Assembly (NCBI GenBank): GCA_001938485.1
Contig: MQRK01218924.1
Span: forward strand, 1 to 64,000
Direction of reading: 5' to 3'
Source of the DNA: Girardia tigrina
Taxonomy: Eukaryota
Length of the DNA stretch: 64,000 nucleotides
Below the pieces are notes generated by a model. The model ran no database searches. It saw only the letters and a list, made by a program, of their open reading frames with translations, and was not told the origin of the DNA. Both the position numbers and the translations under genes were made by a program. Shown here in pieces: positions 29,830 to 64,000 of this stretch (position 1 is its first letter; each line of letters begins with the position of its first letter).

Positions 29830-30294
29830 AAATTTAATTCATGTAAATATTGCTGTTGTATGCCGAATCAAAACTTTATTCCACTAAAATACATAAATTA
29901 ATTAAATTAAAATAATGTAAGTAAATTCAAAACACATGAAATTTAATAATACGAGAAATGAATGATATCAAACAACATTTAAATTCACAACAATTACAAA
30001 TAATTTTATTATAACTTATTTCATTTAAAATTTTCAAGTTAAATAATTGAAGTTCCAAATTGTGTTCTTTTCAATCTTGTTTGGATCTCACATAGTTTTT
30101 ATAAATTCTGTGTTACTATGATTCCCTAGAAAATATGAAGATTGAATTTTTACAAATATGAAAAACATTAATATTGTTTTCAAAATGTTTAATATTATCA
30201 CAATCCGAAATGTTTTTAGGACAACTTTCAACAAACCTTCATCANNNNNNNNNNNNNNNNNNNNNNNNNNNNNNNNNNNNNNNNNNNNNNNNNN

Positions 30295-30947: not shown

Positions 30948-30954
30948 AGATATT

Positions 30955-31105
30955 TTAAATAAAATAGTTTTCTTCAAGTTAGTTCAGATTGGAATGAGGA
31001 GTATTAAATTTTATAGATTTAAGTGCAAGCGATACTATTGATCATGATAAAGATGATCAAAAATGTGAATGTAATATATGTTCCGTCAATGTGTTCTCTT
31101 GTCAT
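30955..31105 (+). mobile_element. Partial LTR, family B (3' part)
   Basis: Similar to 62040-62186 (TTAGTTCAGATT...ATACTATTGATCAT.ATAAAGATGAT...ATGTGAATGTAATA). Confidence 0.6.
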
Positions 31106-35256: not shown

Positions 35257-35511
35257 TATGAGGAATAATTTTGAATGGTTTTATTGTATGTTTTTAGGAT
35301 TGTGTTTTAAATTGTAAATTATTTTGTAATTGATATTGTAAATTAAATGGTAATTTAAATTTGTTTGAATAATTAGACGTTAGAAATAGAAATAAAATTT
35401 ATCAATCAAGAACGATGATTAGCTACAAAAGTTTTGTAGAGTATTGTCCTAATGATAAGTCGAGTTGTGATATCAATAAATGTATTGGAAATCCAATTAG
35501 TGTTTTTAATA
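35257..35511 (+). mobile_element. Solo LTR, family A (internally deleted)
   Basis: TATGAGGAAT...GTGTTTTTAATA with 5-bp TSD AAACT. Confidence 0.75.
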
Positions 35512-37065: not shown

Positions 37066-38245
37066 TTAGGTTGTTCGATATGAAACGGGTCAAAATTAAA
37101 GTAAAATGTAAATCGATTTTTTTTAAATAATAACATTTTATTTTTAATCAAAATATCCCCCAATGTTGTCAACACACTGTTGCCATTTCAATGGTAACAC
37201 ATTTAACCCTTTAGTATAAAACACTGATTCACAAGAGTCAATGAATTCTTGAAAGGCCGTTTTCACAGCCCCAGAAGAAGTGAAATTTTTCCCCGACAAG
37301 AAGTTGTCCAAGCTTTGGAAAAAGTGGTAGTCCGTGGGTGCGAGATCCGGTGNNNNNNNNNNNNNNNNNNNNNNNNNNNNNNNNNNNNNNNNNNNNNNNN
37401 NNNNNNNNNNNNNNNNNNNNNNNNNNNNNNNNNNNNNNNNNNNNNNNNNNNNNNNNNNNNNNNNNNNNNNNNNNNNNNNNNNNNNNNNNNNNNNNNNNNN
37501 NNNNNNNNNNNNNNNNNNNNNNNNNNNNNNNNNNNNNNNNNNNNNNNNNNNNNNNNNNNNNNNNNNNNNNNNNNNNNNNNNNNNNNNNNNNNNNNNNNNN
37601 NNNNNNNNNNNNNNNNNNNNNNNNNNNNNNNNNNNNNNNNNNNNNNNNNNNNNNNNNNNNNNNNNNNNNNNNNNNNNNNNNNNNNNNNNNNNNNNNNNNN
37701 NNNNNNNNNNNNNNNNNNNNNNNNNNNNNNNNNNNNNNNNNNNNNNNNNNNNNNNNNNNNNNNNNNNNNNNNNNNNNNNNNNNNNNNNNNNNNNNNNNNN
37801 NNNNNNNNNNNNNNNNNNNNNNNNNNNNNNNNNNNNNNNNNNNNNNNNNNNNNNNNNNNNNNNNNNNNNNNNNNNNNNNNNNNNNNNNNNNNNNNNNNNN
37901 NNNNNNNNNNNNNNNNNNNNNNNNNNNNNNNNNNNNNNNNNNNNNNNNNNNNNNNNNNNNNNNNNNNNNNNNNNNNNNNNNNNNNNNNNNNNNNNNNTTG
38001 TGGCTCCACGGTGGAACTCATATTTCATTAAAATTCTGATTTCACTGATTTCCATTGCGCTGTTTGATTGTTTGTTGACAAGAAACTATTCAATATATTT
38101 GAAATTATATAATTGATTTTTAAAGAGGAATAATATATCTGTCAAGAAATACCTTATTTATTTTCATACGATAGTTCAAAGTTAAGTTATACGCGATTGA
38201 AATGTAAGGTGTGAAGTTTGACCCGTTTCATATCGAACAACCTAA
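37066..38245 (-). mobile_element. Mariner transposon; transposase 38055-37144, centre in an N gap
   Basis: Perfect TIRs TTAGGTTGTTCGATATGAAACGGGTCAAA with TA flanks; MEISEIRILMKYEF... and PDLAPTDYHFF...GGYFD. Confidence 0.93.
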
Positions 38246-38529: not shown

Positions 38530-39617
38530 ATGTTTAATCATTTATTATGCAAGGTGATTATATATGGAATCTGCGCCAACGGTAAGACTCCTCTCGTTTT
38601 CTTCGAACAGGGGGTCAAAATCAACCAAGAACTTTACCGACGTTACATTCTCAAAGTAGCCATACTTCCGTGGGCACAACGGCATTTTGGCAATGCGGAA
38701 TGGACGTTACAACAGGATTCCGCCCCGGCCCACAAAGCGAAAACACATCAAGATTGGTGCCGGGCCCATTTTCCAAATTTCATTTCGTAAGCAGAATGGC
38801 CGCCCTACTCACCAATCTGATCTCAATCTGATAGACTACAGTGTCTGGTCAATATTGGAGGCCACGGCATATGATACACGTCGCAACAGACTGGAGTCGT
38901 TGAAGCAGTCGCTGCGTCAAGAGTAGAACCGATTGTCGCCAGAAGATCTGCGGCCCATGGCCGAAAATTTTGAATCACGTTTGGAGCTCTGCATCGCCTC
39001 CGGAGGGGGCCACTTCGAAACTGACTGAGTATATTATTTTTAATGGTTTATGTTATTGTTTTGAATCGTTCTTCTTTCTTTCTTTTGGACCTTAGCCGTT
39101 GGACAGTGGATGCACCCAATTATGTACAATCCTTCTCCACATTTCTCTATTTGTAGCTTCTCTTCTCAGACATCCCATGGTCAATCTACTCCATTCTTTT
39201 AAGTCATCTGTTCATTGTCTCTTTGGTCTTCCTCTTGGTCTTTCTCCTTCCACTCTTTCTTCAATAATAACATTTTCTAGTGCTTGTTTTCTTATTTGAT
39301 GTCCGTAGAATTTCAGCTTCCTTCTCTTGATAGTCTTTCTATTGATTCCGGTTTTTTACCTAGTATATCTGTCAAACTCTCATCCAGACAAATTCGTTGG
39401 TTTTCTTTTCTTTCCATGTGATCTTCAGCATTCTCCTGTAGCACTTCATTTCTAAAGCTTTAATTCTATCCATGCTCTTTTGATTTATTGTCCAACTCTA
39501 GCATCCATAGAAAAGTGTTGCCGAGACAATAGCCTAGCATCGTTTTATTTCTTAAATTTCTTTTCTTTAATATAGTTAAGCATAAAAATATGAGTAACAT
39601 TTTGTTTACCGCACCTG
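38530..39617 (+). mobile_element. 3' half of a Tc1/maT (DD37D-like) element, interrupted by a LINE
   Basis: GKTPLVF, QQDSAPAHKAK, WPPYS.DLN.DYSVW, GGHFE; terminal ...TTACCGCACCTG followed by TA. Confidence 0.8.
39071..39538 (-). mobile_element. 5'-truncated RTE-like non-LTR retrotransposon, 3' end
   Basis: Minus strand encodes LFYGC.SW...EMKCYRRMLKITW...KRRKLKFYGH...RPRGRPKR; GA-rich tail; candidate TSD ATCGTT (39065-39070 / 39539-39544). Confidence 0.8.
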
Positions 39618-40719: not shown

Positions 40720-41186
40720 ATGGTAAGACATTTTTATTTTCGCTTTTGTTTTGTTTTTTGAAAAAGTAATGCTTATAAAAAATTGTCTTCTTGTTTCAGT
40801 CAGATGATTTGAAATCATCAGAAATCGCTAAAGTTCCGTTGCAAACGGTTTTTATTAACGGTAATAAAATCAGTACATTAATCCCCAATCGAATATTTGT
40901 TGGAGGATTTCCCCAGAATGTAATGATTATTTTTTGTTGTTGTATGTGGGGTCATGCTTATCGGTCACTTTTGTCACTTTAAGACTTCTGAAGAAGATTT
41001 GAAAAATTTCTTTTTCAAATATGGAGAAATAAAAGATGTGAAAATCATTCCCGATAAGGCCGGACAAGCTAAAGGGTGATTTTGATCGATTGATGATGAC
41101 TTGTGTTGTGATTGTGTGGGTTTAGGAGTTACGGATTTGTGACATTTGAGAGTCAAGAAGTCGCCGAGAAGATCATCACCGAACAA
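40720..41186 (+). CDS. boule: Boule/DAZ-family RNA-binding protein, exons 1-4 (40720-40722, 40800-40919, 40984-41075, 41126-41186)
   Basis: Spliced M-SDD...IPNRIFVGGF (RNP2)...TSEEDLKNFF.KYG.IKDVKII.DKAGQAKG(S)YGFVTFE (RNP1). GT-AG introns of 77, 64 and 50 bp all keep frame. Confidence 0.88.
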
Positions 41187-42529
41187 GTAAAATTGATTTA
41201 ATTTAATCAAGTTTATTTTCGGTTTTTTTTTCTTTTGGGATTTTCGTTTTATTTTTTAATTTGGTGAAACTCGTTTTATAATAAAAGCAAAATCGTGTAA
41301 ATGGGGATAATTCGATATCGACGAAATATTTGTAGTAAGAAGTATTGATTTAACGACAAAAGGTGTTAATGCTCGTTTTTGTAATTCGTGTTTCAAAAAA
41401 AGATTGTCTTGAAAAGTTATTTTAATTTTTTTAGAACATTTTTCTCCAGAGGTAAGGAAAGTGCTGGAATGTTTCATTTGTATTTATATTTTGAGTTGCT
41501 TTTCAGTTAATTCGATAAACATTCGTTTCTTTGGGTTTTTTTTTAAAAAACGAAAAAATAGTAAATTATTAATATATAAAAACGAAAACAGATTTGAAAA
41601 CATGATAATTTTGTTTGTGTAATTAACAGAAAATAATTCGTGTTTTCTATTACCAAGAAAAAATTGTTTTTTTTTCAAAGGTTTTTTATATTAATATTTT
41701 TAAATGATTTTGTGAGGAATGATTGATGTTTTTTCGCTTGAATGTTGTGTGTTAATTTGCTATTGTCTCTTCTACCCAGATGGATGAATAATATTTTGAT
41801 TCTTATGATCTGTACGTTGAGTTAGTTGAAATTTATCGATTCGCCGAACAGTTTATAGATTTTGTTTAATTTAAAATTTCAACAAAATTAAAGAAACCGC
41901 AAACATAAAAAATACACAAATTTTTTTTTAAAAAGTTAAATGATTTATTTATAAAAATCCAACAAAAACTAAATAATTATAAATCAAAAAAGTTTAGATT
42001 AATTAAAAATCAATACATATGTATGTATATAATTTATGTATATTAAATAGGAAAATAATCCGTAAATTTTTTAAAATAATAATTTTTAAATAAATAATAA
42101 ACAGGTTAAATTTATAACTATTTTGAGAGATTTGAAAGTTAAATTAAATATTTTCACGAAATAATTTTGAAAGAAATTAAAGTTTAAAATAAATTTAATT
42201 TAATAATTTTATAATTTATTAATTAAATTTAAAGAAAATATAATAAATTGATTTTGTAGAAACGATTAAATTAACGAAAAAATTGTTTAAATATGTGTAT
42301 AATTTTTATTAATAAATTTTTGTGTTAAAGATGAATTTATAATAATATTGACAGACATTTTTAATGTTTATTCAATGCAGGGGCGGATTTAACAAATGTC
42401 AATCCTGGCGGTAGCCAGGGGTCCCGAGATTGTTGAAGAATAAAAATTTTCTATTAATAATATTGATTTAAATAATATAAATTAATATAATTGATATTAA
42501 AGTCATCAATTGCTAATGAAGGCAAAAAA

Positions 42530-43325
42530 TGAGGGACCATATGTTTAATTCTCTGGTTAACCATGCCTAGATTTACCAAGATAAAAAATATTGGCAGCAT
42601 TCTTTGTCCATTTTAAACTGAAATTATGAATAACAGAAAATATTTTTAGGACAACAAAAATGTCTCATCATAACAGATATAATCCAAATGTGGGAGACTA
42701 TCAATCATTTCGGTTGAAAAGAAAATGATTCTAATGACTCCATCGGCATTATATATTAGTCCCTTTTAATTTTTGTTAAGTACTGAATTTTCTGTGATAA
42801 ACTCAACATAATTAGACACATCTTCAGGGATGTTACGGTAACGAAGATGATTTCTTTTAGTCATTCCTCAAGCAACGATTGGCAAAGAAATTTTCGACCC
42901 AATTTCATCTGAATGCATCCGACAAACATTATCAAAAATATGTCTCGAACTTTCTGATGTTGTTTCAGATTTATCTTTTAGCTCTTTTCTCAGTACTCTA
43001 TAATTGGTTCTTCATGTAGTTCAGGTTCGTAATTATGACAGTTTTCAATAATAATAATATCATTAGCATCAACGATAATAGATGCTTTACCATTGCATCA
43101 TGTAGTGGGATACATCTGATACCGTAATTGATTTTATTTTTGTCTACTTTATTTTGATAATACAAAAAAGAATTTCCCGATACAGTTTTGAAGTCTTTCT
43201 CAAACCCTCTACAATTTCATATTCTATCGAATTACCCTCTATATTTGAAGATATTTTTGATCTATGACAAATTCTTTACAATATTAATTATTGTAAAATA
43301 GAATTACCATCATTATTGGAAGATG
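42530..43325 (-). mobile_element. Degenerate MULE-like transposase remnant (intronic)
   Basis: Minus strand gives IIFFSTEMIDSL...YDETFFVV (decayed DGTF motif) and an upstream Cys/His finger-like segment. Confidence 0.45.
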
Positions 43326-43352
43326 ACGTTTGGCTCTATTTTTAGTTTACAG

Positions 43353-43400
<48 letters not shown>

Positions 43401-43633
43401 AATATTCTCATTGNNNNNNNNNNNNNNNNNNNNNNNNNNNNNNNNNNNNNNNNNNNNNNNNNNTGTGTACCCCATACAATCTCACAAGAACGAGTATCGT
43501 CTAAATGATAATTGCTGAATTAAAATATATCGTATATGTTTTATGTTTACACATTTTAATGTATACTTTATTAGTTTTATATAATTATTGTTATTAATAT
43601 TATAAAATAATAATTATATTTTAAATTTATTTA

Positions 43634-43670
<37 letters not shown>

Positions 43671-43674
<4 letters not shown>

Positions 43675-43870
43675 TGCAATTAATATTGTTCGGGAACTCC
43701 GAATTTTCCGTTTTTTTCCATTTTGGGATCTTAAAAAGCTTTTTTCGATGAAATTTTCCATTAATCATTTATCGTTATCGAGAATGAGTAAGTGTGCAAA
43801 GTTTGAAGAAAATCGATTGAGTAAAAGGCCTTCAAAAATAGGTTTCTAAATTCCATGGATATATATATAT
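43671..43870 (+). repeat. Short interspersed element (Helitron/MITE-like), copy 2
   Basis: Homologous to 21661-21840; embedded between (TA)n tracts. Confidence 0.6.
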
Positions 43871-44611
43871 ATATAAAGTAATATAATAAAAGAATGGAAT
43901 AAATTTATAATAAGTTGTTATAATTGATGATTGAACTAACACTAAAATAATCACGAACAACAACATTTTAAATGAAATATATTCCTCTGATCAGTTGAGG
44001 CAAGGTTTTTTTTATTTTTTGAGACAGCAATAAAGTTTATACACGTACGATAGCCCGGGTAGAACTGGACATCGATTATTGAGGATAGATGAGCAATAGT
44101 TCAATTCTATGATCACGAACTCTTGAATGGTTGATAAAAGAAGAGTTAGAATAAAAATTTTCATCTTGACTTGAATATCTACAATATGAAAGCTGGAACT
44201 GGATTTTCTGAAGAGGCAAAATAAAAACAATAGATTTCAAAACTAAATTGTTCCGCAAATTCTTGATGATGAATTATGTGATTCACCACGACAAAGAAAA
44301 AATACAGCGGTAATTTTTTTATCGGAGTTGTCGTATAACAACTACAATTATCGCTAAAAAATATTGTTTTAATTAATTTAAATATTTAATTGTATGTAAT
44401 AGCCAATAGCAATATCGATAAATCGTTATTGCTATAGTTAATTAAAATTTTAATTATTTATAAAAAAATGTATCAATAATTTGATATAAATAAGAAATAA
44501 TAATCCCAATAATTTTTTCAATTCAACCTACAACCCACAGGTGGTGGTCGCTTGAAGCTAAACCTCCCTGTGGGCACTGAGAAACAAAAAAGATACGGAA
44601 TAATGTAAATA

Positions 44612-45861
44612 TTAGGTTGGGGAAAAAGAAATCCATTATTTTGGCGTGAAATTCAAAACTTTATTTAACATGTTTCGGATTGTCCTCTTGGAGTCAAATA
44701 TGCACCGTTTTGTTGTATAATTAGTTGCCATTTTGAATGTAGCTTCATAATGCCTCTCTCGTAGAAGTCTTGGTCCTTATTGGTGAAAAACTGTAGTAAT
44801 CGATTTTTACAATGTTCTATTGATCTCAATGTCTTATCACTCAGGAAATTTTGCAATGCGAGAAAAAGGTGGTAATCGTTTGGTGCCAGGTCCGAACTAT
44901 ATGGTGGATGCATTAAAACTTCCCAACCAAGCTCCCTGAGTTTCTGGTGAGTCACTACAGACGTAAGTGGTCTGGCATTGTCGTGATGGAACACAACACC
45001 TCTTCTGTTGGCCAATTATGGTTGTTTCTCATCAATTGCTATCTTCAAACGGTCCAGTTGTTGACAGTACAGATCTGAATTTTGTGTTTGGTCATACGGA
45101 AGCAACTCATAATAAATGATTCCTTTCCAGTCCCACACAGTAGAACCTTCCTGGCCGTTAGTCCTGGTTTGGCGACCGTTTGAGGTGCTTCACTGTGCTT
45201 TGACCACGATCGTTTTCGTACAATATTATCGTATGTAACCCATTTCTGATCCCCAGTAACCATCCGTTTAAGAAATGGGTCGATTTCATTTCGTTTGGCC
45301 AAGGCTTCGCAGATGGAAATTCGATCCATCATATTTTTTGGTGTTAATTGGTGTGGAACCCAAACATCAAGTTTCTTTTTGAATCCTGCTGTGCCCAAAT
45401 GGTTTAAAACCGTTTTGTGGTCGATCTTCAGCTCCTTTGCGATGCTACGACTACTAACATGCCGGTCAACTTCGATCATTGCCGAGATTTTATTGACATT
45501 TTCAACGATAGGCCTGCCTGTGCGAGGTGCATCTTTAACATCAAAAATACCTCCACGAAATCGACAAAACCAAAATTGCGTGTCATTAGCTGTTACAGTA
45601 TTGGCATCATAAACACCATTCATAATAACAGCCGCCTGGCTTGCATTTTCACCTTTATCGAATAAAAACTGTAAAATTTACCGAATTTTTTCTTTGGTGA
45701 CTTCCATTTTTAACACCCTATAACTCGAACTGAATAAAAAAAGCAAAAAATTTTTTTGTGAAATTACTGTGAAATGTTACCTTGACAAAGAGCATAAATT
45801 TGAAATTGTTTGATCGATAAATAATGAATTAAAATAATGGATTACTTTTTCCCCAACCTAA
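44612..45861 (-). mobile_element. Full-length degenerate mariner
   Basis: TIRs TTAGGTTGGGGAAAAAG.AATCCATTATTTT with TA flanks; WVPHQL, VTGDQKW, HDNARP, HPPYSSDLAP; frameshifted. Confidence 0.95.
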
Positions 45862-46099
45862 TATTTAATTATATATAAAAGCCAAAGGAATTTATTATTT
45901 GTTATCTTCCAACATTCCAACCAAATAAATCTCGCTTGCTTCCTGAGTAGAAGAGATTGCAAATGAATGAAATAATAAGTCAGTCTTTATGTTCTGTGGA
46001 ATTTCTCTCACAGATCTCTGGAAGGGTAGTTTGCGGAAGCATAATGGTGCTAGTTAGCTGATACACTGGTGTTGTTTCCAAGTCACGCAAGTTAATGTA

Positions 46100-47060
46100 T
46101 TAGGTGTATAACTTAGTTTTTTGGATTTTTTTTTGCAGAACAGACAAGTTTATTTATATGACATAATAAGTCTTATTCTAATCAAAATATTTTCCATCGT
46201 TAATTATGATTTTCGACCATCTTTCAGGCAAATTATGAATTCCATCGAAAAAAAGTTTTGGTCTTTTGATGCGATCCATTGTTCCAGCCATTTTTTTATA
46301 TGTTCCTGGTTTCTGAAGTGCTGGTCCCGAAGACCGCTGTGCATTGATCGGAACAGATGATATTCTGATGGGGCACAATCTGGTGAATAGGCAGCATGCG
46401 GTAGAATTTCCCATTTAAGTGCTTCCAATGTGTTTTTTACTTGTTTTGCGACATGTGGCCGAGCATTGTCATGGAGCAAAATNNNNNNNNNNNNNNNNNN
46501 NNNNNNNNNNNNNNNNNNNNNNNNNNNNNNNNCCATTTAAGTGCTTCCAATGTGTTTTTTACTTGTTTTGCGACATGTGGCCGAGCATTGTCATGGAGCA
46601 AAATCACTGTGCGCTGTTTGTTGGCTGGAATAGGACGTTTTTCCTTCAATCTTCCTTTAGTAATGATTCCAAATCTTCATCTTTGAATCTTTTTGGTTGA
46701 CCGGAACGCTCTTTGTCACTTACGTCGAAATCTTCACTTTTGAAACGTTTATACCAGTTCTCGCAAGTCTGTTGAGTNNNNNNNNNNNNNNNNNNNNNNN
46801 NNNNNNNNNNNNNNNNNNNNNNNNNNNNNNNNNNNNNNNNNNNNNNNNNNNNNNNNNNNNNNNNNNNNNNNNNNNNNNNNNNNNNNNNNNNNNNNNNNNN
46901 NNNNNNNNNNNNNNNNNNNNNNNNNNNNNNNNNNNNNNNNNNNNTTTTAATGCCTCGATTTCAGCACTTTAAAAATCTGTACGTACGACTGTAAAATAAT
47001 GCTTATTACAAATGTTACACCATCTCTTAGAAAATCCAAAAAACTAAGTTATACACCTAA
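46100..47060 (-). mobile_element. Internally deleted, gapped mariner
   Basis: TIRs TTAGGTGTATAACTTAGTTTTTTGGATTT with TA flanks; [22 protein letters not shown]. Confidence 0.92.
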
Positions 47061-47079
47061 TATTACATGAAGTCCAACG

Positions 47080-47300
47080 CATCTCAATGTACATATCTAA
47101 ATCCAGTTGCTGAAACACAACTTTAATGTGACGCACATGCATTTAACAATGCTATCTTTCATAAAGCGAGCTACACGATGATTTGGTTCAAGGAGCACAA
47201 TGTAAATGTTAAAGATTGGCCCCCACAATCACGAAATTATAAATAAATCTAAAAATTTTTGGTCTCAGTTGAAACATATATAAAACCATTAAACTATGCA
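47080..47300 (+). mobile_element. Tc1 catalytic-domain remnant
   Basis: WFKEHNVNVKDWPPQS motif. Confidence 0.5.
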
Positions 47301-48900
47301 TTCTTAGATAATATTTATATTGAGTGAAAGTAGTTTATTTTGGTTACTTGTGTACTCAAAATGTTTTACTATGTTTCGTGTTACCTTGATCTCAAAGTAC
47401 CAGTAAAATTGACTCCTACATCACCAATAACTCCGTAAAAAAACTGCCAACTTGTACTTTAAAGCTCTGTTTATCGGTTATTGTTTTGTTTGATTATAGA
47501 TGTTGATTTTTTGAAGTTAATTACACTAATCAATTTAAAACCTTATCAATGATGCTTTCGTTTTTATATTTTTTTTGTGATTTTCTTTGTCGCACCTGTC
47601 TTGTAAAATTTGTTGTTTACTTTTTTTAATTGTTAAAGAGTTTGATTTTTATTCATGTATAGTATTTATTTCTTGGTTTTACTAATGGAGATCATAAAGT
47701 AATAGTTAAAGTTTGAAGAATAAATAAATTATGTCGAAAAATATTTTCTAAGCATTATATTGTCAATGTTTTCACTTTTTTGTTAAAGATTTAAATTCAA
47801 TTCTTGGAATCCATAATAGTTAATTTGAAATTTACAGTTACTGATAGACTTATTAGTACCTTTGTTGTTTCATCTATTTCAGAGTAATACTTAAAAAAAA
47901 TAATAATAAAAAATATATTAGTTTTATATATTATTCATAAATATTTAAAAAATGACGATAAATTATTTTTAAAAATCAAAAAACTTTCATTAAAATTTAT
48001 TGTGATCAATTTCGATGGATCAACCGTTATCATCAGACTAAAATTAACAATGATATACTTGAAATTGATCACAATAAATTTTGACGAACGTTTTTTGATT
48101 TTTATGTATTATATCAAATATATTATGAATTATGTGATTCACCAACGACAAAGAAAAAATATAGCGGTAATTTTTTTATCGGAGTTATAATTCTTTATAC
48201 CAAGAAAATTTTTGCAGTTTATTGTTTGATTTAAAAATAAAATATACCCTATTTTCACGTGTTTAAAACATCAGAATGTATATGAATACCTATAATTTCT
48301 TTCCAAATTCGAAAAACTAATACTACTAGTAGTACTTTTCTTAAACTGCAAGTAAAAGAAACCCATACGAATTTGAAAAAGTACAACATACACCCAAAAT
48401 ATATACAACAGGGTGCCCAGTAGAAACTAAAGTGATAAAGGCTTGCTGTTCAGAATTGTGCAAAATGCCCTCCGTAATGTTGCAACACTTTCAAAGACGT
48501 AGAATTCAGGAACTGTGGCCTTGAGAAATACTTACATGTTGATGTTCTACCATGTGAGTAATAAATCGCTTTTAAGTTCATCAATCGTTCTAATATCGCT
48601 GTCTACTCCTTGCAAATGTTGGAGAACAATTTCCCAGATCCTATAATCCATAAAATTCAGATCTGGACTTTTCGATGGCCACTCAGAAGGCCTGATATAC
48701 TTTTTTTTCTTCTCTAACCAGTTAACTGCAGCCGTGGCAGTATGAGGTTTTGTCCCGTCTTGTTGCCAAATCCATTCTTCAGCGCCCATTACATTACTGA
48801 TATCCCTAAACATCAAGGGACACATTTCATCACGATATACAGTCTGGTTTGATGGCTTTCTTCTTTCTTTGTGAAGGAACCACATTTTCTTGACCTTCAG

Positions 48901-49930
48901 CGAATGGATTTAACTCAATTGGTCTAAAACAAATTGGTTTAAACAATTGGTGTTAAAACAAATTGGTCTAAAAATAAATTGATCTAAACAAATAAATTAA
49001 CCTAACAAGAAATTTGTCTAAATTTAAAGTCGATTAAAAGTAATCCGTTTAAAGTGAATTTGTTTAAAACAACATTTTAACAAGGAAAACACTCAAAAAT
49101 GGAATTATACTTTATAACTAATAAAAAAGGAAAAAAGAAACTACTACTTGCAAATTATTTGTACTGGAAGAATAATGAAGCTAAAGATCAAACATACTGG
49201 AAGTGTGAAAAATATCATTCGAAGTGCTATGCTCGAGTAATAACGGAAAATGATATACAATCTCCGGAGTTTCTGGACAACATAAACATCTGTAAATGTT
49301 GCACATGTAGAGGCTGATCAAATCATGGATCTCATCAAAGCAGCCTGCATAAAAACAAGGGAAGCACCAACCTCCATATTATCAATTTCATGTGGTGCGG
49401 ATATTGAGTCAGTAAGAGGCAGATTACCGGATGTCTCGTGTGAGGAATATTTTTGAATGGTGATTATTGTATGTTGTTTGGTATGTTGTTTTAGTATTTT
49501 GTTTCTCCCACTCAGATGGAAGATTGATATTTTAAAACGTCGGATTGTTTAATAAATTATTAAAATTTTAATAATCAACTTTAAAATTAAATTAATATTT
49601 CATAAATAATATTTTAATAATGTTTTTCTTAAAATAAATAAAACATTTTTTTTAATTTAAAGTATAAATTATTTTTGTAATCAAATTGTAAATGAAATTT
49701 ATTTGAATAATGAGACTTTAATGAATATTATTTAAAAACTTATCAATCAAGAACGATGACGAGCTACGCAAGTTTTATAGAGAATTGTCCAAGTGGCAAT
49801 TCAAATTGTGATACAAATAAATGTAGTGAAAACTCAATTAGTGTTCTCTATATGTCGAACATCAAAAGAACGATACAGCGAGTTCGAGTTTTAGAAGAGG
49901 AAACATAACTCAGTTTACCCATACCAAGAT
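48901..49930 (+). mobile_element. MULE 5' end with a FLYWCH domain
   Basis: Subterminal AATTGGTCTAAA repeats; MELYFITNKKGKKKLL..YLY...YWKCEKY..KC.ARVIT; the coding sequence resumes (NIKRTIQRVR) after the solo LTR. Confidence 0.75.
49439..49852 (+). mobile_element. Solo LTR, family A, inserted in the MULE
   Basis: TGTGAGGAAT...GTGTTCTCTATA; near-perfect TSD TCTCG / TGTCG. Confidence 0.72.
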
Positions 49931-50842
49931 ACACTTGCATAGGCCATTATTGAGGTTTTTTATTTATCAACTCCCATCACAAGCTCAAGTTTTAAGTTTT
50001 AAATCTAAGTTTTAAATTCGACTGCTCAACAGAGGCGTTCATTTTGTTTTAGAACCATACAGTTTTCCACTTTTCATCTACTCCATATCAATTAATGAGT
50101 TCTGTTGATTTTGAAACCTGGTTTTGTTTATGATTGACCGTCAGTTTATGACATTTGATTCTGTAATAACATTTCAAGCGACTTTCCTTAAAAATATTGA
50201 ACACTGATCCCTTTGAAATATGCAATGCAGATGCAATTTATCGTTGACTGCAGTGCCGAAGGCGTGAACTATTCTCTGGAGTGGCTGCCATTCTGAGCAC
50301 GGATTGTTTAACTGGAGAGTGAAGTTATCCTTTTTTACCTGTTCATTTCTTATGCATTTGGGCAGCGGCCACGTCGATATTCTTCAGTTTATTACACACA
50401 GCATAAAACTGATTTTCACTAATATCAGCGAAAAACTGTGGAAGAACTTCGGTGCACTTTAACAAGTCCCAATTATGGTGTTCCTTCTTATAAAAGAGAA
50501 ATAACACTGCGTTGAAAATCAGTCAGTTGTGCGGCCATTTTCTAAAGAGAAAATAAATAAGGAAATGTGGCATGTTCTATATAATTATAAGACAGAAATA
50601 TCAAGCAATCAAATACAGTCAATCACGCCTTTGTCATGTGTTTAATTAAAAGTACTGTGGTAACATAAAATCCTTTGGTTTTCTACTGACCACCCTGTAC
50701 TTTGTAAAAGTGTTTTTAAACAATATAATTACGATAAAACTTATGATCTCCCTATAAAAACATCGATATATTAATATTATGAAAATAAATTATAATAAAC
50801 ATTTCTTCATGTTTAATAAAATCTATATTAATAAAAAATCTA

Positions 50843-52104
50843 TAAGGTTGTTTGGATAATTCGTAGCATTTTTAATGGAAGTTTAGAGGTTTTTAAAAGT
50901 TTGCATAGGAGTATTTATTTAATATAATATTCTCCGTTACTCCCTGCCGCCTTTCTTCATTTCATTATGCCTCATCATCTCAAGATTCATTGTGAATCTC
51001 GGAAAAGCTTTGATTTTTGCTCGCAAAAAAATTCATCCGGGTACTTTTTGCAACCTTTTGAATTTTCAAATTTCTTTCCAGTAAGGGAGTTTTGAAGGGA
51101 CCTGAAAAAGTCATAATCTGAAGGAGCGAGATCCGGAGAATAAGGAGGATGCAATTGAATATCCCATCCAAGCTCCAATAATTTTTTTCGAGTCTGCAAA
51201 AATGTGTGCGGCCTTGAGTTGTTATAATGGCAGATAACACCTTTTCCTTTGGTCAAATCTGGGCATTTCAGCTTTCTTACTGCATCCAATTTTGATAATT
51301 GTTGACAATATTTGTCAGAATTAATTGTTTCTTTGTTGAGAAGTAATGTGAAAAAAGTGATTCCTTTCCAATCCCACCATACACTGAGAAAAGCCTTTTT
51401 TGGATGAAGATCGGGTTTTGCTGATGTAAGTGGCTTCGTGCTGCTGTCTCCCCAAGATCTTTCTCGTTGTACATTATTGTACATTATCTACTTTTCATCA
51501 CCAGTTATCAGTTGCTTGAAAAAGGGCTCGATTTTATTTTTTTATCAATGCATTGCATGCGAAGGCACGCTCTAAGAGCACTTTTTCTGATAATTGGTGC
51601 GGTATCCATATATCGAGTCTTGAAACAAAATCAAGATTGTTAGGGTGTTTTGAGCGCTGCTATTAGATATACCAAGTGTGTTAGTCAATTCTCTTGTTGT
51701 AATTCTTGGGTTATCGGCTATTATCTACGGATTTCGTCATCGTTCATACTTGATGGGCGGCCAGATCTTTCTCCCTCATTGGTGTAGAATTTTCCTTTTT
51801 TAAAGTTTGCACACCATTTACGAGCTGTAACCTCTCCAACAGCATCATCACCATAAACTTAACAGATTTTCTTCCTGGTTTCTGAAGCATTTTTTTCTTA
51901 TTAAAATAAAATAGCATAAAATATCTTGACTGGTTTATTTTCTTCCATTATAAATTTATAATCTATATAAAAAATTATTTTTAAAATCTAATATACATAT
52001 ATTTATTTAAAAAAGATAAACCAGTTTAATTTTCAGGGAAAATTAATAAATTTCATCTTTAAAATTTGTATTACAAAACGCTACGAACTTTTCGAACAAC
52101 ATAA
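50843..52104 (-). mobile_element. Full-length degenerate mariner
   Basis: Imperfect TIRs; WIPHQL, ITGDEK, SVWWDWKG, HPPYSPDLAPSDY. Confidence 0.92.
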
Positions 52105-52308
52105 TAGAATTGTAAAATAGTTATAATAATCTGAGAACATATCTTCGGGTTTTTAGATATAAATCACCCGTAGTTTCAAATCTTATTAATTTTGAAATCA
52201 TATAATAATTCCTTTTGTCAATTCCAGATTCTTCCTTTTTATCTTCTCTTTTGTTCATAGTATTTTGCTAATATCACGCTTTTTAAATGATTTGGTTATT
52301 ATAGAAAC

Positions 52309-52769
52309 TATGATGAATGTTTGATGTGTTTAAATGTTGTATGTTGAATTTGTGTCAGAATTTGTGACTTGAACATTTAAAAAATACATCTTCTATCCAG
52401 ATGACTGATTAATATTTTAATTCTTAATATCTGAAACTAAATGAATTTAATTTTAAGTTTAACGTTTAAATGTATTTTAAATTTTAAAATACCTGCCAAA
52501 TTTTATATGGTTTGAATAATTTATTTAAAATTTAAAAATAAATTAATCAATTATTTTTTTTAATAATTAAAATTCATTTTACTTTTAACCAATAAAATTT
52601 ATTTGATATGTATTTTTTAAATGTTCAAGTCACAAATTCTGATAATTTTAAATTAGAAATATTAATCAATTGAATGATGCAAACCTACGAAAGTTTTGGT
52701 AATAATTGTCTTAAGAACAAATCAATATGTTGTAATAATAAGTGTCCAAAATCATAAGTGTTCTTAATT
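52309..52769 (+). mobile_element. Diverged solo LTR, family A-related
   Basis: TATGATGAAT...GTGTTCTTAATT; TSD GAAAC / GAAGC; shares the CCAGATG and CTAC.AAAGTTTTG blocks with other copies. Confidence 0.6.
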
Positions 52770-52779
52770 GAAGCGTCTT

Positions 52780-53420
52780 CATCATCCAAAGATCTAATAG
52801 CTTGGTTTCATATTTCGGTAATAAAAAGTATTTTCTTTAAATGTTCACTACGATTCCGAGCAGAATTTCATCATTTGGCAAAGTTTTCCGTTTAAATATA
52901 AAATATAGATATAAATTTAAATATGTGGTAATTTAGTTCCGTATGTACAGCGAAATAAGACAAAAGTGTATTGCTTTTTTCTTTTTGTTTAATTTTAATA
53001 AATATTGTCTTTGTACTTTCATAATCCATAGTTCTGTTGGAGGGTACATCGAATGAAATAGGCACTTTATTCATGTTTCCCATTCATGTTCTCGATCAAG
53101 CTTAAACCAAAATGTCTATGGTAACTTTAATATATTAGAATTAAAAGAAGTCTTTTATCTTTATATTCTTTTGACATTATTTGCAGCAAATAGGTTCTAG
53201 TCCTCATCGAAATACTTTTCCTTTCCACTAAGTAAAAACACCATCCTCGCTTAACTATTAAATTAGTAACTTTGTTTACGGAGTTCATTTCGGCACTTTC
53301 ATACATTTCCTTTTCTATCTACCTAACATGAACATGGATTTGTATTTTTTTTAATTTGTAACTTTCCGTTTGAGATGTTCTCTTGAATTTATAGGTACCT
53401 CCTTCCAGTTTCAGTATTTG
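52780..53420 (-). mobile_element. pogo/Tigger-like transposase remnant
   Basis: MGNMNKVPISFDVPSNRT (decayed GN.DETP..FD.P) and an upstream S.GWC..F CENP-B-like segment. Confidence 0.6.
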
Positions 53421-56129
53421 TTTTGGAAAGTGGAGGAGAAAGTTTTTATTAGACCATGTAATATAAACTTTTAAATTTATATTTGTATAAAAAATACAAT
53501 AATTTATAAAATCATCAAATTAAATTATCAATATCAATTATTGGATTGTTTATATATATATAAAGATTAATTTACACAATGACTACGGATTTGAGTTAAG
53601 GAAAACCGAGTTCAGATGAATCTAATTCCCTGTCTATCTCAAACAACACTAAAAGTCAAACAAATTCGCCCAAATCGTTTTCATCATTGTTAGATGTTTT
53701 TGGAACATCTTCCACGCTATCGATATTATAAGCTGACATCACATTTTCAAATTTTATTTCTCTACCAAAAAAAAATGTCTAATACATTTTATTTAAATAA
53801 ATTTAATCGAAATTAAATTCATTTATTTTTTTTTACTTTTGAGGAACTATTTACTCCATAAATCTCAAACCGGTATAATAAAAATAAATATAGTATAATA
53901 ATCCATTTGACTTTTTTTTACTTTCTGACAATTAAATAATTTTTGATTTTATAATGAGACTTTGAATTCAATTATTATTTCAAAAATTTTAAAAAAACAT
54001 TTCATAAAAAGTTCCTAACAATCATCATTAAGTTTCACGAGTGCCAGATTTCGAATGGTTGTGAATTCAATGTTTCATTGAAGACAATCTTCCTCACGAC
54101 CAGTACTCATATTGGGATATAATCATGCCATTTCAGACTATTGCTTCTGGAGGTATTACCAAAGAAAGACTCATTTTATTCATATCAAGTAGGAATAAAT
54201 TCCGTATGGAATATTTCAGAAAAAAACTTATCATTGATAAAAAAATGTTACTCAATCGAGTGTAATTCATAGTCCAAGGTTGCTTATCAAGTTTACATGT
54301 CTAAATAAATTATGGAAGTCTCAAGTATCGATAGAGGAAGTGGTTTGCTAGATTCCCACATTTATTAGGAACGAAATGATTAAGGTACCAATCGGGGAAG
54401 TTAAACAAGAACAACAGCTATTTGAACGTAATATTCTATCAAATATAAATAAACTTTTAAAAGAATATTATTTAATTGATGATTGTTATCCTCACAATTT
54501 GCTGTCAGAAACAATTAAATATCTGGTTGAAAACCCCGAAACATTATCGTAAAGTGTTCTCTGTTGTTTCGAAACCATCTAGGAGATCTGTACTATTTGT
54601 GGTAATGGATTTCATTCAAAAACGGACTTGGACAGTCATTTAGAAACGTAAAATTGTAAAGCTAATACAATTCAATTCATAGATGTCAATGTACCAAAAC
54701 ATTTGACATGCATTTTAAATGAACGAATCACTGGTTAATGTGTGATGTGCCATATGGGGTTATAGCTTGCCATATTTGGAGAAACACTGCTTGGGTACAT
54801 TTTAATCATACCTTTCACCGTTGTGATGGATGTCAGATATTTTTCTTTGGCTCTTTACAATTGTGGAATCCTATTTGTTACTGTCCTTTTCCCGGGTTTT
54901 TTACTTGCCAACTTTCAATTGTGTGTTGATAATATGAAAACGAAATTGTATTATGAAAGCAGTTTTCAAGAATTAATGAAGACCCTTATAGTGATAAAAT
55001 ATGTATAAAATTATTACAAGAATTGTCGAAAATGATCGATTGGCGTTTGCTTATCAACAAATGGGTGGTAGCATTCTCATGTGCCCGAATGCTGATAGCT
55101 GCCCCATTTGGGAAAAGAAATTTCAGAATTTTTAAATGGCAATTGTTTTATAAAAATTAAAAGACGCCATTTTAAAATAAATTTTTTATTAACGCAATAT
55201 ATTTAGACGGAATATCTGTCATCATCAGGCGATTCTGATTCTAGCTATTAAGCTTATATATGTAAGAATGATGATTACTTAATCAATTATGTAATAACCG
55301 CTTCACGCAATTATAAATGTTTGCAATTAATTGAAACAATTGCAATAATTGATTGTTTGCCTCCAATTAATTGCAATTAATTTTTCCCAGCCTTGGGTGT
55401 AAGTGTATGTTAGAGTTCGTATGGGCACTCACTCACACATCTGAACTGCACTATTTGACTGATTAGACTCCTCCATTATCGTTCTTGGTTTGACTGTGAT
55501 AATTTCTTCTCACGCCAATCTGCGTCCGCATTCACATACACCTGATATTTATGTCTGATGGTTGTGCCGCTTCCTACCACATGAATGAACACTATGTAGT
55601 CTTTGCTTCATTGAAATTTGTTATTATAAACAAATGAATGGATAAATCTTGGTTGCATGAAACAATGACTTGTTCCACCAAATACCAGATTTTTCTATCG
55701 ATTGGGACCCTGACAGCATAATCATAACTTTAATGCTTCTCAAAAGTCGCTCTCACATACTGCCGCATGTTACCGACCAACTTGACTCCTCCGCCCCATA
55801 TTTTAAGCTGTACCGAGACTCACAAAAACCATGCTTTATTTGCACACGCACACAAGGATTATTTGGCGTTTGGGTACCAAATTCAGCAAACCCTATGCAC
55901 ATTAGCACTTATAATCTTTCTACCTAACGTTTGTGTATACATCTTTCTCATTGAAGTGAATTTCATTATATTTTTCTAAGTGAAATGATGACCTCTGAAA
56001 TTTCATTATTCTCAGTGCTGATTGTGCCTTTTAACTTTTTTTGCTATCCATGAGGTCCAAGTTCTTTTCATTGTACTGATTCTGTGTATCATTCAATCTA
56101 TTGTAACTATCGTCTTGGATTTTATCAAC

Positions 56130-57870
56130 ATGAAATTACTACTTCGACTAAAAAGTGAAAAGGCCAAAAGGAAAATTCATGCTACAGAATCTGAAATCAT
56201 TATTTCCGACTGCTGTGATTCAAGTGAAGCTAAAAGTCAATGTGAAAGTGAAGGTGAAGTTGAAGTGAACAAACATCGTGAGTGATAGCACAGATGAAGA
56301 AAATAGTGATACGGAAGAACTAACTCATCCAGGACAATATCGTTGTGGAAAGCATGCACTTCCATAATCTGTGGACGTGTTTCATTCACTAAACAATAGT
56401 CAAGTATTTTTAGAAAATGACGCAAATGAGCCTATCCATTATTTTCGCATTTTTCGACGATTCCGTGATTGACCAAATCTCTATGCATTCTAAGTATATG
56501 TTCTCTTGAGCAGTTCATATAGAAGGACGTTATCGAGAAGTTTTTAGGTGCAACAATGCTTATGCGCATCTATCACATTCTTCGAACAAGAATGTTTGGG
56601 AAAGACCCGATGAAAGATTCAATGATATGTGCAAATACACCACTATCTACTTGTTTAAAATAAACTTTCTATTTTTTAAATTCGAATTTGTGTATAAATA
56701 CCTTCATTTCAATGATAGTAATATGATATCATCAAGAGATTGCCAGGAATGCAATAAGCTATATAAAATAAGACCACTACTACAGATGATTGTGTCAAAG
56801 TTCGGAGTCCTACCTTTAGAAGAGTGTTATAGTATCGATGAGCAGATACCTTTAATCCAGAGAAGATCACCAATTGAACAGTACAGGCCAAATCGACCCC
56901 ATAAATAGGGGGTCCAAAATTGGTTCTTACAGTGCCAAAGGTGAGTATATACTTGGCGACAATGTTGTTCTAAATCTCCAGGAAGGGATAGTACCAAAAG
57001 GAAAACACCATAAAATTTCATTCGATAATTATTTCACTGGGTTACCATTGCTAGAGAAGATGCATTTACTTGGTTAGAATGATCTAGGCACCCTTAGATC
57101 AAATCGACTAAAGGGTACCAACAATACTCTGAAACCGAAAAGCAAGTTGATAAAAAAGGAATAGGCTCCTCTCACTTGGTATGCAGCATTCAACTCACAT
57201 TAAATTATATCGACGGCGAGTTTGATATACCGGTTTCATGGTACTGTCACAAAACGCGCTTAGAAGCTATTATCGTGTATGAACGAAAACACGAAAATGG
57301 TACCGTTATATTTTTTTTCAATCTTGTCAATCACGCTATTTTCAACAGTTGGCTGCTATACCATCAGGACGGGCACATCCAAAAGCTACCAGAACGACAA
57401 ATATTGGATTCTTGCTCACAAGACATTATAACAAACACCAAAATTTATTTCTACAACAATTCGAATTTTTTAAACAAATATTTTCATAATTTCATAACAT
57501 TCAAAAATTTTATTTATGAACGTTCCCAACAACAACAATTAACTATTTTGCGTTTTCAAGCATCATACTCTAACTCTTTGTTATTTCAAAACAAACCCAC
57601 ACCAGCAACGATGACGAAGAAACGTGTACAACCATCTCATTCATCTTCTTCAACATGCCCAACAGTCAAAGTTGGTAGAAAAGCTGTAACTACTAATCCA
57701 GAGAAGGCGGTTAGATCACATCTGGTTGATCACTACTCAATTTTCCTATAAAAACATCAGCGCTGTCGTCTGTTTGCAACGCCATGAACGTGGTGAAACT
57801 TACTTTTTGTACTCAAATGTAAAATACATCTATGTCTACATCGTACATGCAACTGCTTCTATGATTGGCA
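56130..57870 (+). mobile_element. Degenerate piggyBac (PGBD3-like) transposase
   Basis: Acidic N-terminus, KLYKIRPLL, YSIDEQI, PNRPHK.G.K, FDNYFTGLPLL, NSWLLY and a C-terminal Cys-rich remnant. Confidence 0.85.
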
Positions 57871-58435
57871 TCACTGAATATGGAAATTTTCAGTAGACAT
57901 TCGCATTGTTTTGTACTTTCCATAGAGTGAAAAAAGTTCTGATTGTGATTTGTCTTTGTTGAAAGACAAATTAAAATTTTTGTTAATAATGTCAATAAAA
58001 ATTACTTTTTAAATTAAAAATGAATTATTAAATAAATTAATCAGAATTATACAATTAAATAAATTACTAATTTAGTTAAATTAGATTATTATGTTATTAA
58101 AAACATTTGAAAATTATAACAAACTAAAATAAAATTTAGATAATTTAATGTTTTATTTTGAAAAATATGTGTTAAGTTTTAAAATATTTGTTAAGTTTTT
58201 ATTTTATTTTACTATAAATTTTATTTTTTAGTACTAAAATGTTTTTGCTTTTGAAAAAATTCATGCTTACACTTACTTTTAGATCAAAACTTATGATTAT
58301 AACTAATTTTATTTCTTGTGTTTTAAAATTTATTTTTCATTTGAAGTTAAGCAAGAAAAAATAATAAGTTCTAAGAAATAAATAATTAAGTACATTATTA
58401 ACTTTTTGTTTTGAGTTTTTATATTTTGTAAACAG

Positions 58436-59213
58436 GCGGAAACATTAGTGTTCAGAGATCGAAAACTAAACATTGGTAGAGCTGTTAAAAAACAAGTATG
58501 CTTTATTATATCATTTTAAAATTCTAACATGTTGTCAAGCCTTTAACTGGCAAAGCTGAAATGCAAAATACAGTAATCTTGAATACATTACCTTTACCAT
58601 ATGGAGCAGTATATCCTTACCAGGATTATTCTTACCTGTTCAATCAGGTGAAATATTTAATGATAAATTTATAATATATAAACATATTTAGGATCTGACT
58701 TCGTTTTATCAAAATTATTCCAACCAGTTGTCTCAAATGTCCATGTTACCTGCGTACACATCTTCCTTGCTATCTCCATTTATCGCAACTAATGAAACTC
58801 TGGGTCTTTCTCTAAATCCATATCAACAATTACAGTCATTAATTCCGTTATCCGTTGCTACGCCCTCTCAAAATAATTCTTCCTTCCTTGTAGACGCTAC
58901 CACTTATTTAACAGAACAATTATCCAGTAATCCAATCGTATCAACCGATACGTCTAGTTCCTCTGATTCGAGTAAAACTACAGATACAGTAACAATTTCA
59001 AGCAGTTACAAAAGTTATGACACGAATTTACAGCCGAAATCACAAAATAAAACTCCATTCAATGCAATTACCAATCAAGTACTTAATAATAAAAATTCCG
59101 CAAGCAAGTTTGTTAAAGATGATTATGAGTTACCGAAAAAGAAAATAAAACATGAAGAAACAAACAGCGTCACGAAGTTTAGTGAACCAATACATTACCT
59201 ATTTCCTAAGTGA
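58436..59213 (+). CDS. boule: Boule/DAZ-family protein, exons 5-7 (58436-58495, 58540-58647, 58692-59213)
   Basis: Exon 5 AETLVFRDRKLNIGRAVKKQ completes the Boule RRM in phase 0 with exon 4; two 44-bp GT-AG introns; Pro/Tyr/Gln- then Ser/Thr-rich tail; predicted protein ~321 aa. Confidence 0.85.
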
Positions 59214-59358
59214 TAAATTATTTTATAATAGAATGCAAAATGTTCTTTTGTGTTTGTCATGTTTATTATAATAAAATGTTTGTACTTTTCGAAGTTCTTT
59301 GTTTTATTGATTTAAATTTATATTTTTAATTCAAGAGTTATTATGGACTCCTCATACA

Positions 59359-62186: not shown

Positions 62187-63011
62187 GAGGTGATGTCGGT
62201 AGTTTATGAATGCAAATTGAACTCTAAACCCTAATTAATTACTGAAAGGTAACATGTTTTTACATGCTTCTCTATTCATTTTGCATTTATTGTGTTTCTA
62301 AGAAAACTTAGAAAAATAAGTAAATTTTGATAATTTGAAAATTGAAATTTTAACCTCTTGAAAAAACTAATAAAAAACAATGACAAATTTTTAAACAGAA
62401 ATTAAATAATGTTCAAAGTGAAAAAACAACTAAAAAAATTTTTTTCAATCCTTTTTCTGAATTTATATTAAATTTTTAATCGTAAAGTCATCTCATTTAT
62501 TAGATTTAGAATTCTTTTACTTCTCCTAAAAATCAGATAAATTTTAATATTTTTTTCCAGAAAATATTTTAAACTCTATTAATATTAAATAGTGTCCAAT
62601 AAACCATTGAAAAATCATTCATAAATTTTAAATTTAAAAATACTGTAACTTTTAAAATTCAATTTTCACAAACACCTCATTTCTATAAAACAATCAAAAT
62701 TGATTTTTCGAAAAAAAACAACATTTTTTAATTTAAAAAAATCTTGATGATTAAATTTTTCCATCTCACTTAAAAACATTTTCGAAAAAAATTTACTAAA
62801 TCGCAAAAAAACCGACTTTGTTTATTTATATAAAGATCGATTTCCCACAAATTTAAATATATTGACAAACAACTCCATTAGTTTCAATCAAAAGAAAAAG
62901 GAGAAAATTCATTTTATTAATATTCTATTTAAAAATTGTTTTTCTAATTTGTTATGATACAAATATCGAACTATCTATTCTAAAACTTATTCAATATCGA
63001 AATTGGAAATT

Positions 63012-63690
63012 ATGGATTTCAATGAACCGAACATCGATCCAGATGTTATCGAATTCTATCGATCGAAACCCAAGCAATCTAGTCAGCCACAGACACAGAC
63101 TCGCTCGTCGATCCCCGTCAGTCAGCAGCAGCAGCACCAGCAGATCCTCTACCACCAGCACATGCAGCAGATCCAGCAGAACCAACAGCAAATCCTCAAG
63201 CGCCCGTCTCAAGCGCAGATGTACTATCAGAAGCAGTCCGCGTCTGCAGCGACCGCGAGCCAGCAACAGCAGCAGCAGCACCAGATCCAGCAGCAGCTGC
63301 AGCAGGCCGGCAAGCCCGTCAAGGTCTACCACCAGCACCAGCAGCTCATCCAGCAGCATCCCCAGCAGCCGATGGCGGCCGTTAGCGCGTCCCACTCTAG
63401 CAGCAACTCGGGCAGCAACACGAACACCGGCAGCGGCACCAGTCTCAAGGCCAAGGACCTCGTGCAGCTGCTCAAACACGGCATCGCGCTTCTGCCCGGC
63501 GGTAGAGACAAGCNNNNNNNNNNNNNNNNNNNNNNNNNNNNNNNNNNNNNNNNNCGACATCGAGGATTTGTATGTGCTGGTGAGATATTTGACGTTTCTA
63601 CCCGACGAGAACGTGAAGAAGTTGAAGTTTTCCGTGGTGATTGATATGCGGGCGGGCACGACCTGGCACAGCGTCAAGCCGATTTTGAAG
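63012..63690 (+). CDS. First coding exon of a Trio/Kalirin-like (SEC14/CRAL-TRIO domain) protein with a poly-Q N-terminal extension
   Basis: LKAKDLVQLLKHGIALLPGGRDK...EDLYVLVRYLTFLPDE...FSVVIDMR..TWHSVKPILK matches the Trio/Kalirin/SESTD1 SEC14 start; GT donor at 63691; the frame change coincides with an N gap. Confidence 0.82.
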
Positions 63691-64000
63691 GTTTAATTCA
63701 TTTGATTTTATTTTACATAATTACTTGTATCGCTTATTGAGAGTTTAATCCCTCATCCTTTTCTAAATAAAATAATATATTAATATAACATGTTATCGAA
63801 TGGAGACACAATAGCGCGTACACAGAGGATTAGAGGGATAAATTGCCCCCGAAAAATTTAAATTTCGACATCAATTATCTTTAGAAGTTGTTTAACTGCA
63901 TATAAATAAATAATAAATGTTTAAGTTTAAAATACGAATTCTCCAAAATAATTTATATTATGCAAATTTAATAAAACCAACCAAACATTTTTTTAATTAT

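Follow-up and report, generated by a model that had tools for sequence, protein, structure and literature searches.

The window, i.e., the whole 64,000-nt stretch of Girardia tigrina DNA analyzed here, contains an intact boule2 gene. Its intron 4 was probably enlarged by repeated, nearly neutral insertion of transposable elements (TEs) and is probably spliced out as a single unit through exon definition (rough probability 0.8 for this reading as a whole). The intron is real but ordinary, and boule2 is a known flatworm fertility gene.

Joined in silico, the seven exons (Table 1) form an intact reading frame of 966 nt (321 amino acids and a stop codon) that lacks internal stops. All six introns are of the GT-AG type, with lengths of 77, 64, 50, 17,249, 44, and 44 nt. 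Together with the continuity of the product with the Schmidtea mediterranea protein, these features bear out the proposal of an earlier, sequence-only reading that exons 1–4 and 5–7 join in frame. Its statement that intron 4 is more than 200 times longer than the other five also holds (224–392 times as computed). However, intron 4 does not lie in the middle of the RRM, as had been proposed, but in its last part, where 58 of the 70 positions of the Pfam model precede it; it is one of three RRM introns. Translation running from exon 4 into intron 4 meets a stop after four codons. At the acceptor of intron 3, a tandem TAG/GAG allows an alternative exon 4 start at 41129, and use of the first AG (intron of 50 nt) agrees with the Schmidtea protein. 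Exon 1 has no match in the S. mediterranea Boule2 entry, whose N-terminus differs and is longer (86 extra residues relative to the window protein). An AATAAA motif lies about 57 nt 3' of the exon 7 stop. Seven in-frame pseudo-exons within intron 4 were considered and rejected; five are inside mariners and none is Boule-like. Separately, the region 58436–59300 is partly present in 15 sequencing runs from seven studies, with no RNA run among those listed; the share covered in the best run is 0.75, for a spliced-transcript ceiling of 0.79–0.82, and these values are silent on splicing and expression.

Table 1. Exons of boule2, its fourth intron, and the repeats and relics located within that intron.
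Feature	Position	Strand	Evidence or remark
boule2 exon 1, putative coding part (ATG only)	40720..40722	+	GTAAG donor, strong acceptor, upstream in-frame stop
boule2 exon 2	40800..40919	+	Terminates in RNP2 (PNRIFVGG); 33/40 identical to S. mediterranea Boule2
boule2 exon 3, RRM core	40984..41075	+	RRM_1 E=1.2e-5; 27/31 identical to S. mediterranea Boule2
boule2 exon 4, RNP1 (KG|SYGFVTF)	41126..41186	+	18/20 identical; S. mediterranea Boule2 has KGSYGFV
boule2 intron 4	41187..58435	+	Phase 0, GT-AG, nominal 17,249 nt, three N gaps
boule2 exon 5, RRM end (AETLVFRDRKLNIGRAVKKQ)	58436..58495	+	20/20 identical to S. mediterranea Boule2
boule2 exon 6	58540..58647	+	31/36 identical to S. mediterranea Boule2
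boule2 exon 7, low-complexity C-terminus and stop	58692..59213	+	108/173 identical to S. mediterranea Boule2
Dispersed repeat	43614..43885	.	Recurs beyond boule2 at 21604-21859 (75% over 276 nt by blastn)
Full-length mariner relic 1 with a broken transposase	44606..45867	-	37-nt TIRs 97%; HTH_48, Transposase_1
Fragment of a histone H3 pseudogene, located between mariner relics 1 and 2	45898..46053	-	Pfam Histone E=1.7e-8; H3 E=1.6e-14
Mariner relic 2, across gaps 2 and 3	46098..47062	-	32-nt TIRs 100%; ordered transposase pieces
maT/Tc1-like relic interrupted by MULE	48409..50697	-	DDE_3 E=9.8e-5 at 48550-48909; matching terminal repeats
MULE-type FLYWCH fragment	49081..49314	+	FLYWCH E=1.4e-13
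Repeat downstream of FLYWCH fragment	49441-49847		Also at 18000-18385 and 35305-35504 (blastn)
Mariner relic 3, decayed TIRs	50843..52103	-	Transposase_1 E=1.2e-20, HTH_48; termini
MITE-like element	52355..52642	.	67-nt inverted arms, 78%
piggyBac-type transposase fragment; element longer, ends undefined	56510..56905	+	DDE_Tnp_1_7 E=1.1e-6

On sequence comparison, the gene is a planarian boule2 orthologue. The window protein is identical to S. mediterranea Boule2 (UniRef A0A172RVR3, ANE21797.1) at 237 of 321 positions (74%), and the two proteins share RNP2, the KGSYGFV form of RNP1, and the sequence across the intron-4 junction, over which the Schmidtea protein is continuous (ITEQ|AETL). The comparison is with another species, and identity falls to 62% in exon 7; a search with exon 7 returned S. 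mediterranea Boule2 as the sole match (E=2e-54). Full-length similarity to Boule2 that includes the fast-evolving C-terminus suggests boule2 rather than boule1. In addition, the primer reported for Smed-boule (PMC4858218) encodes IIPDKAGQ, which both proteins contain.

Boule proteins of the DAZ family are described as having the RNP2 signature PNRI(V)FVGG, a single N-terminal RRM, and a size of about 30 kDa (PMC2904765). Exon 2 has PNRIFVGG, as do 49 of 53 aligned rows. The RNP1 signature DRAGV(I)SKGYGFV(I) corresponds to DKAGQAKG-S-YGFV in the window protein, which differs from the metazoan Boule/DAZL genes of that report by one extra residue at the intron-3 junction. This residue also occurs in S. 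mediterranea Boule2, and among the 53 rows it is present in 21, absent in 26, and unclassified in six. The RRM is spread over exons 2–5 with three internal junctions, as in those metazoan genes (PMC2904765), a similarity at the level of exon layout. With its 321 amino acids, the window protein agrees with the size and single-RRM description, and S. mediterranea Boule2 has one RRM_1. Exon 6 is rich in Y, P, and Q, and no Pfam match beyond the RRM was found in either planarian protein when a C-terminal DAZ repeat was sought. Searches of the PDB with the Schmidtea protein recovered DAZL (2xs2, E=1e-16 to 1e-17) and cannot decide the family because multi-RRM proteins outrank it by summed score. 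Exon 2 alone retrieved only unrelated leucine-rich-repeat chains from the PDB.

The Schmidtea orthologue is reported to be germline-restricted and, in both sexes, to function in germline stem cells and spermatogonia (PMC4858218). By analogy, the Girardia protein is likely an mRNA-binding translational regulator that maintains male and female germ cells. The word "meiotic" in the earlier description of Boule is therefore too narrow.

The recognizable content of intron 4 is TE debris. Six relics have transposase evidence, namely three mariners, one maT/Tc1-like element, one MULE, and one piggyBac, and Pfam domains, TIRs, and terminal repeats confirm these families as first proposed. With about five further non-coding repeats or TIR pairs, several of them MITE-like, the earlier count of at least ten relics is also supported, but its pogo and solo LTR assignments are not confirmed: Pfam scans found no pogo domain, and read-through of 52600–56101 in 12 frames matched no TE family. 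The relics are nested and differ in apparent age, with TIRs ranging from 100% identity to decayed. They account for 8,143 of 16,982 nt (about 48%), and both ends of the intron are AT-rich without recognized TE domains. GC is 0.299 in intron 4, against a comparison value of 0.313, and no tandem array exceeds 80 nt (the longest is 77 nt). The histone H3 fragment has stops at either side.

The length of 17,249 nt is nominal and includes 267 N in three gaps. The first gap (43414–43463) adjoins TA microsatellites, and no element was seen to span it; a partner terminal repeat across it was not found. The gap at 46483–46532 is bordered by an exact 72-nt overlap, a false duplication, so the corrected length is about 17,127 nt.

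These patterns suggest the following history. One insertion would first have moved intron 4 out of the 50-nt class, after which it would have been by far the largest safe target in boule2 (about 17 kb, compared with 279 nt for the other five introns together). Because of this, later insertions would have hit intron 4, often inside older ones. Insertions into the introns of 44–77 nt would be rare and would break splice signals.

Alternatively, transcription of boule2 in germline stem cells may yield more heritable insertions, making intron 4 a true TE sink, as the sequence-only reading proposed for germline-open chromatin. The germline restriction of the orthologue (PMC4858218) and the higher insertion rate reported near Drosophila germline genes (PMC2098804) favor this hypothesis, although compactness selection is said to offset the latter effect partly (PMC2098804). 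In the window, TE-domain loci number five in 15,969 nt of the intron and seven in 43,094 nt of flank, such that 5 of 12 loci fall on 27% of the scanned bases. This nominal excess of about 2-fold (0.31 versus 0.16 per kb) is non-significant in a test of low power (p=0.20; with mariner 2 added, 6 of 13 and p=0.11). Moreover, the flanks are also TE-rich, and repeat families of intron 4 recur outside boule2. The neighboring nicotinic-receptor gene, which is neural, has a 44-nt intron and likely a 10-kb-class intron beside it, a layout that would match that of boule2. No ligand-binding-domain match was found in 9,200 non-N bases upstream of this neighbor, where 999 N could hide its missing exons. 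A formin-like ORF at 19054 was rejected as a long-intron control gene, being a broken fragment with no homologue. These observations do not establish a TE sink, and germline-biased insertion is an unlikely explanation. Slightly less likely still is a broader version, in which intron 4 is long in all planarian lineages and refilled each time with different TEs, because germline transcription attracts heritable insertions while boule2 is timed in germ cells by the length of the intron or by an embedded enhancer. If true, planarian germline master genes would be systematic transposon traps.

It is improbable that the length itself is functional, with a long intron 4 retained for enhancers or transcript delay in germ cells. 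About half of the intron lies outside assigned relics, its ends are AT-rich, and 49% of putative planarian enhancers are reported to be intronic (PMC11410931); the content that can be recognized is nevertheless of TE origin.

For the splicing of intron 4, both exon definition and recursive splicing had been put forward. The former is plausible and fits the unusually U-rich acceptor, whose tract is 61% T, the highest among seven introns examined; 9 of 685 AGs within intron 4 reach this level. The flanking 60-nt exons are likely held by the tiny neighboring introns and this strong acceptor. Stepwise removal is very doubtful. Recursive-splice sites (YAG|GT[AG]) number three in sense and two in antisense, compared with 5.3 expected from shuffles, and none in the intron has a pyrimidine tract of at least 67%. 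The sole candidate, an AGAG|GTAAGG that follows a pyrimidine tract 263 nt into the intron, would excise less than 2% of it. Finally, an assembly artefact, in which a gap joins halves that belong to different loci or haplotypes and makes the length wrong, is the least probable alternative despite the three gaps, the unbridged TA-flanked one and the false duplication, as the halves are consecutive, on the same strand, in phase, and match one orthologue, the 64-kb window holds no second copy of any boule2 exon, gaps 2 and 3 are within one mariner with perfect TIRs, and the gap-free part from 46945 to exon 5 alone spans 11.5 kb.

Intron 4 is most likely a large example of the common long planarian introns rather than a special germline feature. 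Introns of S. mediterranea are reported to be bimodal in a fragmented assembly, at 57 bp and 1–10 kb (PMC4978528), and this second mode contradicts the earlier view of a spliceosome used to tiny introns. Planarian introns are also reported to expand through TE insertion, with Schmidtea genes of up to 380–513 kb (PMC11410931), and large introns of Dugesia are described as longer still (bioRxiv 10.64898/2025.12.11.693146). As in these long-mode flatworm introns (also PMC6530080), boule2 has tiny introns beside a kilobase-scale, TE-expanded one, although a length of about 17 kb puts the latter in the upper tail, beyond the 1–10 kb mode quoted for S. mediterranea. Our literature search found no report on boule2 intron 4 or on recursive splicing in planarians. 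ORF-based annotation overlooks this germline master regulator and fragmented assemblies would split it, so the locus is useful in giving its correct gene model, as well as a clear example of planarian introns leaving the 50-nt class and then snowballing. It would carry more weight only if such introns concentrate in germline genes genome-wide or if intron 4 stays long across species. The Y-linked fertility genes of Drosophila, with their gigantic introns (PMC6508621), are similar in that genes of the germline carry introns of outsized length full of repeats, but those introns are megabase-sized and satellite-filled, whereas boule2 intron 4 is about 17 kb and contains dispersed DNA-transposon relics.

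The seven boule2 exons join in frame as the sequence-only reading proposed, giving 321 stop-free aa across introns of 77, 64, 50, 17,249, 44, and 44 nt, all GT-AG. Its identification of the gene as Boule was also upheld. Among 1,137 candidates, the sole exon 7 match was Schmidtea mediterranea Boule2 (E = 2e-54), and 237 of the 321 residues are identical (exons 2–7: 33/40, 27/31, 18/20, 20/20, 31/36, and 108/173), which suggests a planarian related to Schmidtea as the source. The gene is a further member of a known family. The Schmidtea gene, equated with boule2 through a primer encoding IIPDKAGQ, is restricted to the germline (germline stem cells and spermatogonia), and its RNAi abolishes sperm and oocytes (PMC4858218). 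At the intron 4 junction, ITEQ|AETL is uninterrupted in Schmidtea Boule2; unspliced, exon 4 would reach a stop four codons inside the intron. No duplicate of any boule2 exon was found within the window. A mis-join of the gene halves is unlikely, because they are consecutive, in phase, and unique within the window.

Features of boule2, its fourth intron, and a neighboring gene
Feature	Position	Strand	Remarks
boule2 exons 1–7	40720-40722, 40800-40919, 40984-41075, 41126-41186, 58436-58495, 58540-58647, 58692-59213	+	predicted; in-frame join
Intron 3 tandem acceptor TAG/GAG	41123-41128	+	first AG gives KGSYGFV (as Schmidtea), second AG classic KGYGFV
Non-coding repeat	43614-43885		further copy outside boule2
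Repeat pair	44266-44329, 48122-48186		non-coding
Mariner 1	44606-45867		TIRs 97%; transposase evidence
Histone H3 pseudogene fragment	45898-46053	-	wedged between mariners 1 and 2
Mariner 2	46098-47062		TIRs 100%; covers gaps 2 and 3, transposase pieces correctly ordered
Inverted-arm elements	47970-48104, 52355-52642		non-coding
maT/Tc1-like element	48409-50697		split by FLYWCH-bearing MULE
Non-coding repeat	49441-49847		further copies outside boule2
Mariner 3	about 50843-52103		decayed ends; transposase evidence
piggyBac-type fragment	intron 4		transposase evidence
Nicotinic acetylcholine receptor alpha, 3' exons	10200-10458, 10503-11251	+	44-nt intron 10459-10502

Intron 4 contains 267 N in three gaps. 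Its length of 17,249 nt is nominal: an exact 72-nt overlap flanks the second gap, which brings the intron closer to 17,127 nt, with the sizes of the first and third gaps being estimates. No element was found bridging the first gap. Within the 70-position RRM model, intron 4 comes after position 58, late in the domain rather than in its middle as had been claimed.

Its size most likely places intron 4 in the upper tail of the long introns already known from planarian genomes. Published work describes sharply bimodal intron sizes in S. mediterranea (57 bp vs. 1–10 kb; PMC4978528), Schmidtea intron growth at least partly from transposon insertion, with 396 of 840 Mb within genes and largest genes of 380–513 kb (PMC11410931), even longer large introns in Dugesia (bioRxiv 10.64898/2025.12.11.693146), and clustered micro-introns alongside a 3-kb peak in flukes (PMC6530080). 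A first insertion would have lifted intron 4 from the short class, and the enlarged intron would then have provided nearly all of the safe insertion target in boule2. Such snowballing is suggested by the nested elements and varied TIR decay.

Between exon definition and recursive splicing, both proposed earlier, single-step removal through exon definition is likely, because the acceptor tract is so T-rich (61% T, more than in any other of the seven introns compared) and rarely equaled internally (9 of 685 AGs). Intron 4 has three ratchet-like sites vs. 5.3 in shuffles, none with a strong tract.

The tabulated relics, repeats, and H3 fragment cover 8,143 of the 16,982 non-N bases of intron 4, with element ends partly placed by eye. 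The three mariners, maT/Tc1-like element, MULE, and piggyBac of the earlier census were recovered, but solo LTRs and pogo were unconfirmed, with no pogo domain in Pfam scans of the intron. Where they go further than the Pfam names, the subfamily labels (maT, MULE, and MITE) are presumptive readings of motifs. A degraded Cys/His-rich frame at 54400-55050 (+), with a weak C2H2 match (E = 0.012) and no family assigned by the Pfam scan, is possibly one more transposon relic.

Stop-to-stop fragments of at least 40 aa and at least 27% GC were scanned against Pfam. For intron 4, 96 short fragments and the longer ORFs covered 15,969 bases. For the flanking sequence, 148 of 156 longer fragments (six within a palindrome and two with N were dropped) and 170 short fragments, excluding the second palindrome arm, covered 43,094 bases. 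By point estimate, distinct TE loci are about 2-fold denser in intron 4 (five vs. seven in the flanks), but the test is weak and the enrichment not significant (binomial p = 0.20; 6 of 13 loci, p = 0.11, with mariner 2 counted). The proposed TE sink in germline-open chromatin was therefore not demonstrated. In addition, tblastn found two flank relics (37156-37350 and 38686-38857). Raised insertion near germline genes, partially offset by selection for compactness, is already known from Drosophila (PMC2098804).

RNP2 agrees with the Boule signature given in PMC2904765. RNP1 carries one additional residue, which falls precisely where intron 3 has its tandem acceptor. In an alignment of 53 Boule-like rows (the window protein and 52 single-RRM matches hand-picked from 150), this residue is present in 21, absent in 26, and unclassified in six; the insertion may have originated by acceptor shift.

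The 9,200 non-N bases upstream of the nicotinic receptor 3' exons hold gypsy and hAT relics and gave no match to the ligand-binding exons (fluke homolog residues 1–234). Their apparent absence from the upstream 10 kb points to another long TE-filled intron, likely of the 10-kb class, unless the exons sit in 999 N. Elsewhere, a 3.9-kb near-perfect palindrome (27088-30969; arms 98–100%) carries two opposed intronless NIF/FCP1-like phosphatase domains (Pfam E = 1e-13 and 6.5e-21); its 589-nt duplication adjoining a 50-N gap is likely an assembly artifact. GC-rich and CAG/Gln-rich open frames without a Pfam match lie at the window end (62866-63696). Long inverted arms at 15419-16375 (273 nt at 95% and 92 nt at 100%) are foldback- or MITE-like. 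A broken formin FH2 fragment occupies 19054-19456 (+), with a 44-nt piece repeated inverted at 18420-18463, and two broken LTR-retrotransposon relics with RT, RNase H, and DUF7047 lie side by side at 22900-27000 (+).
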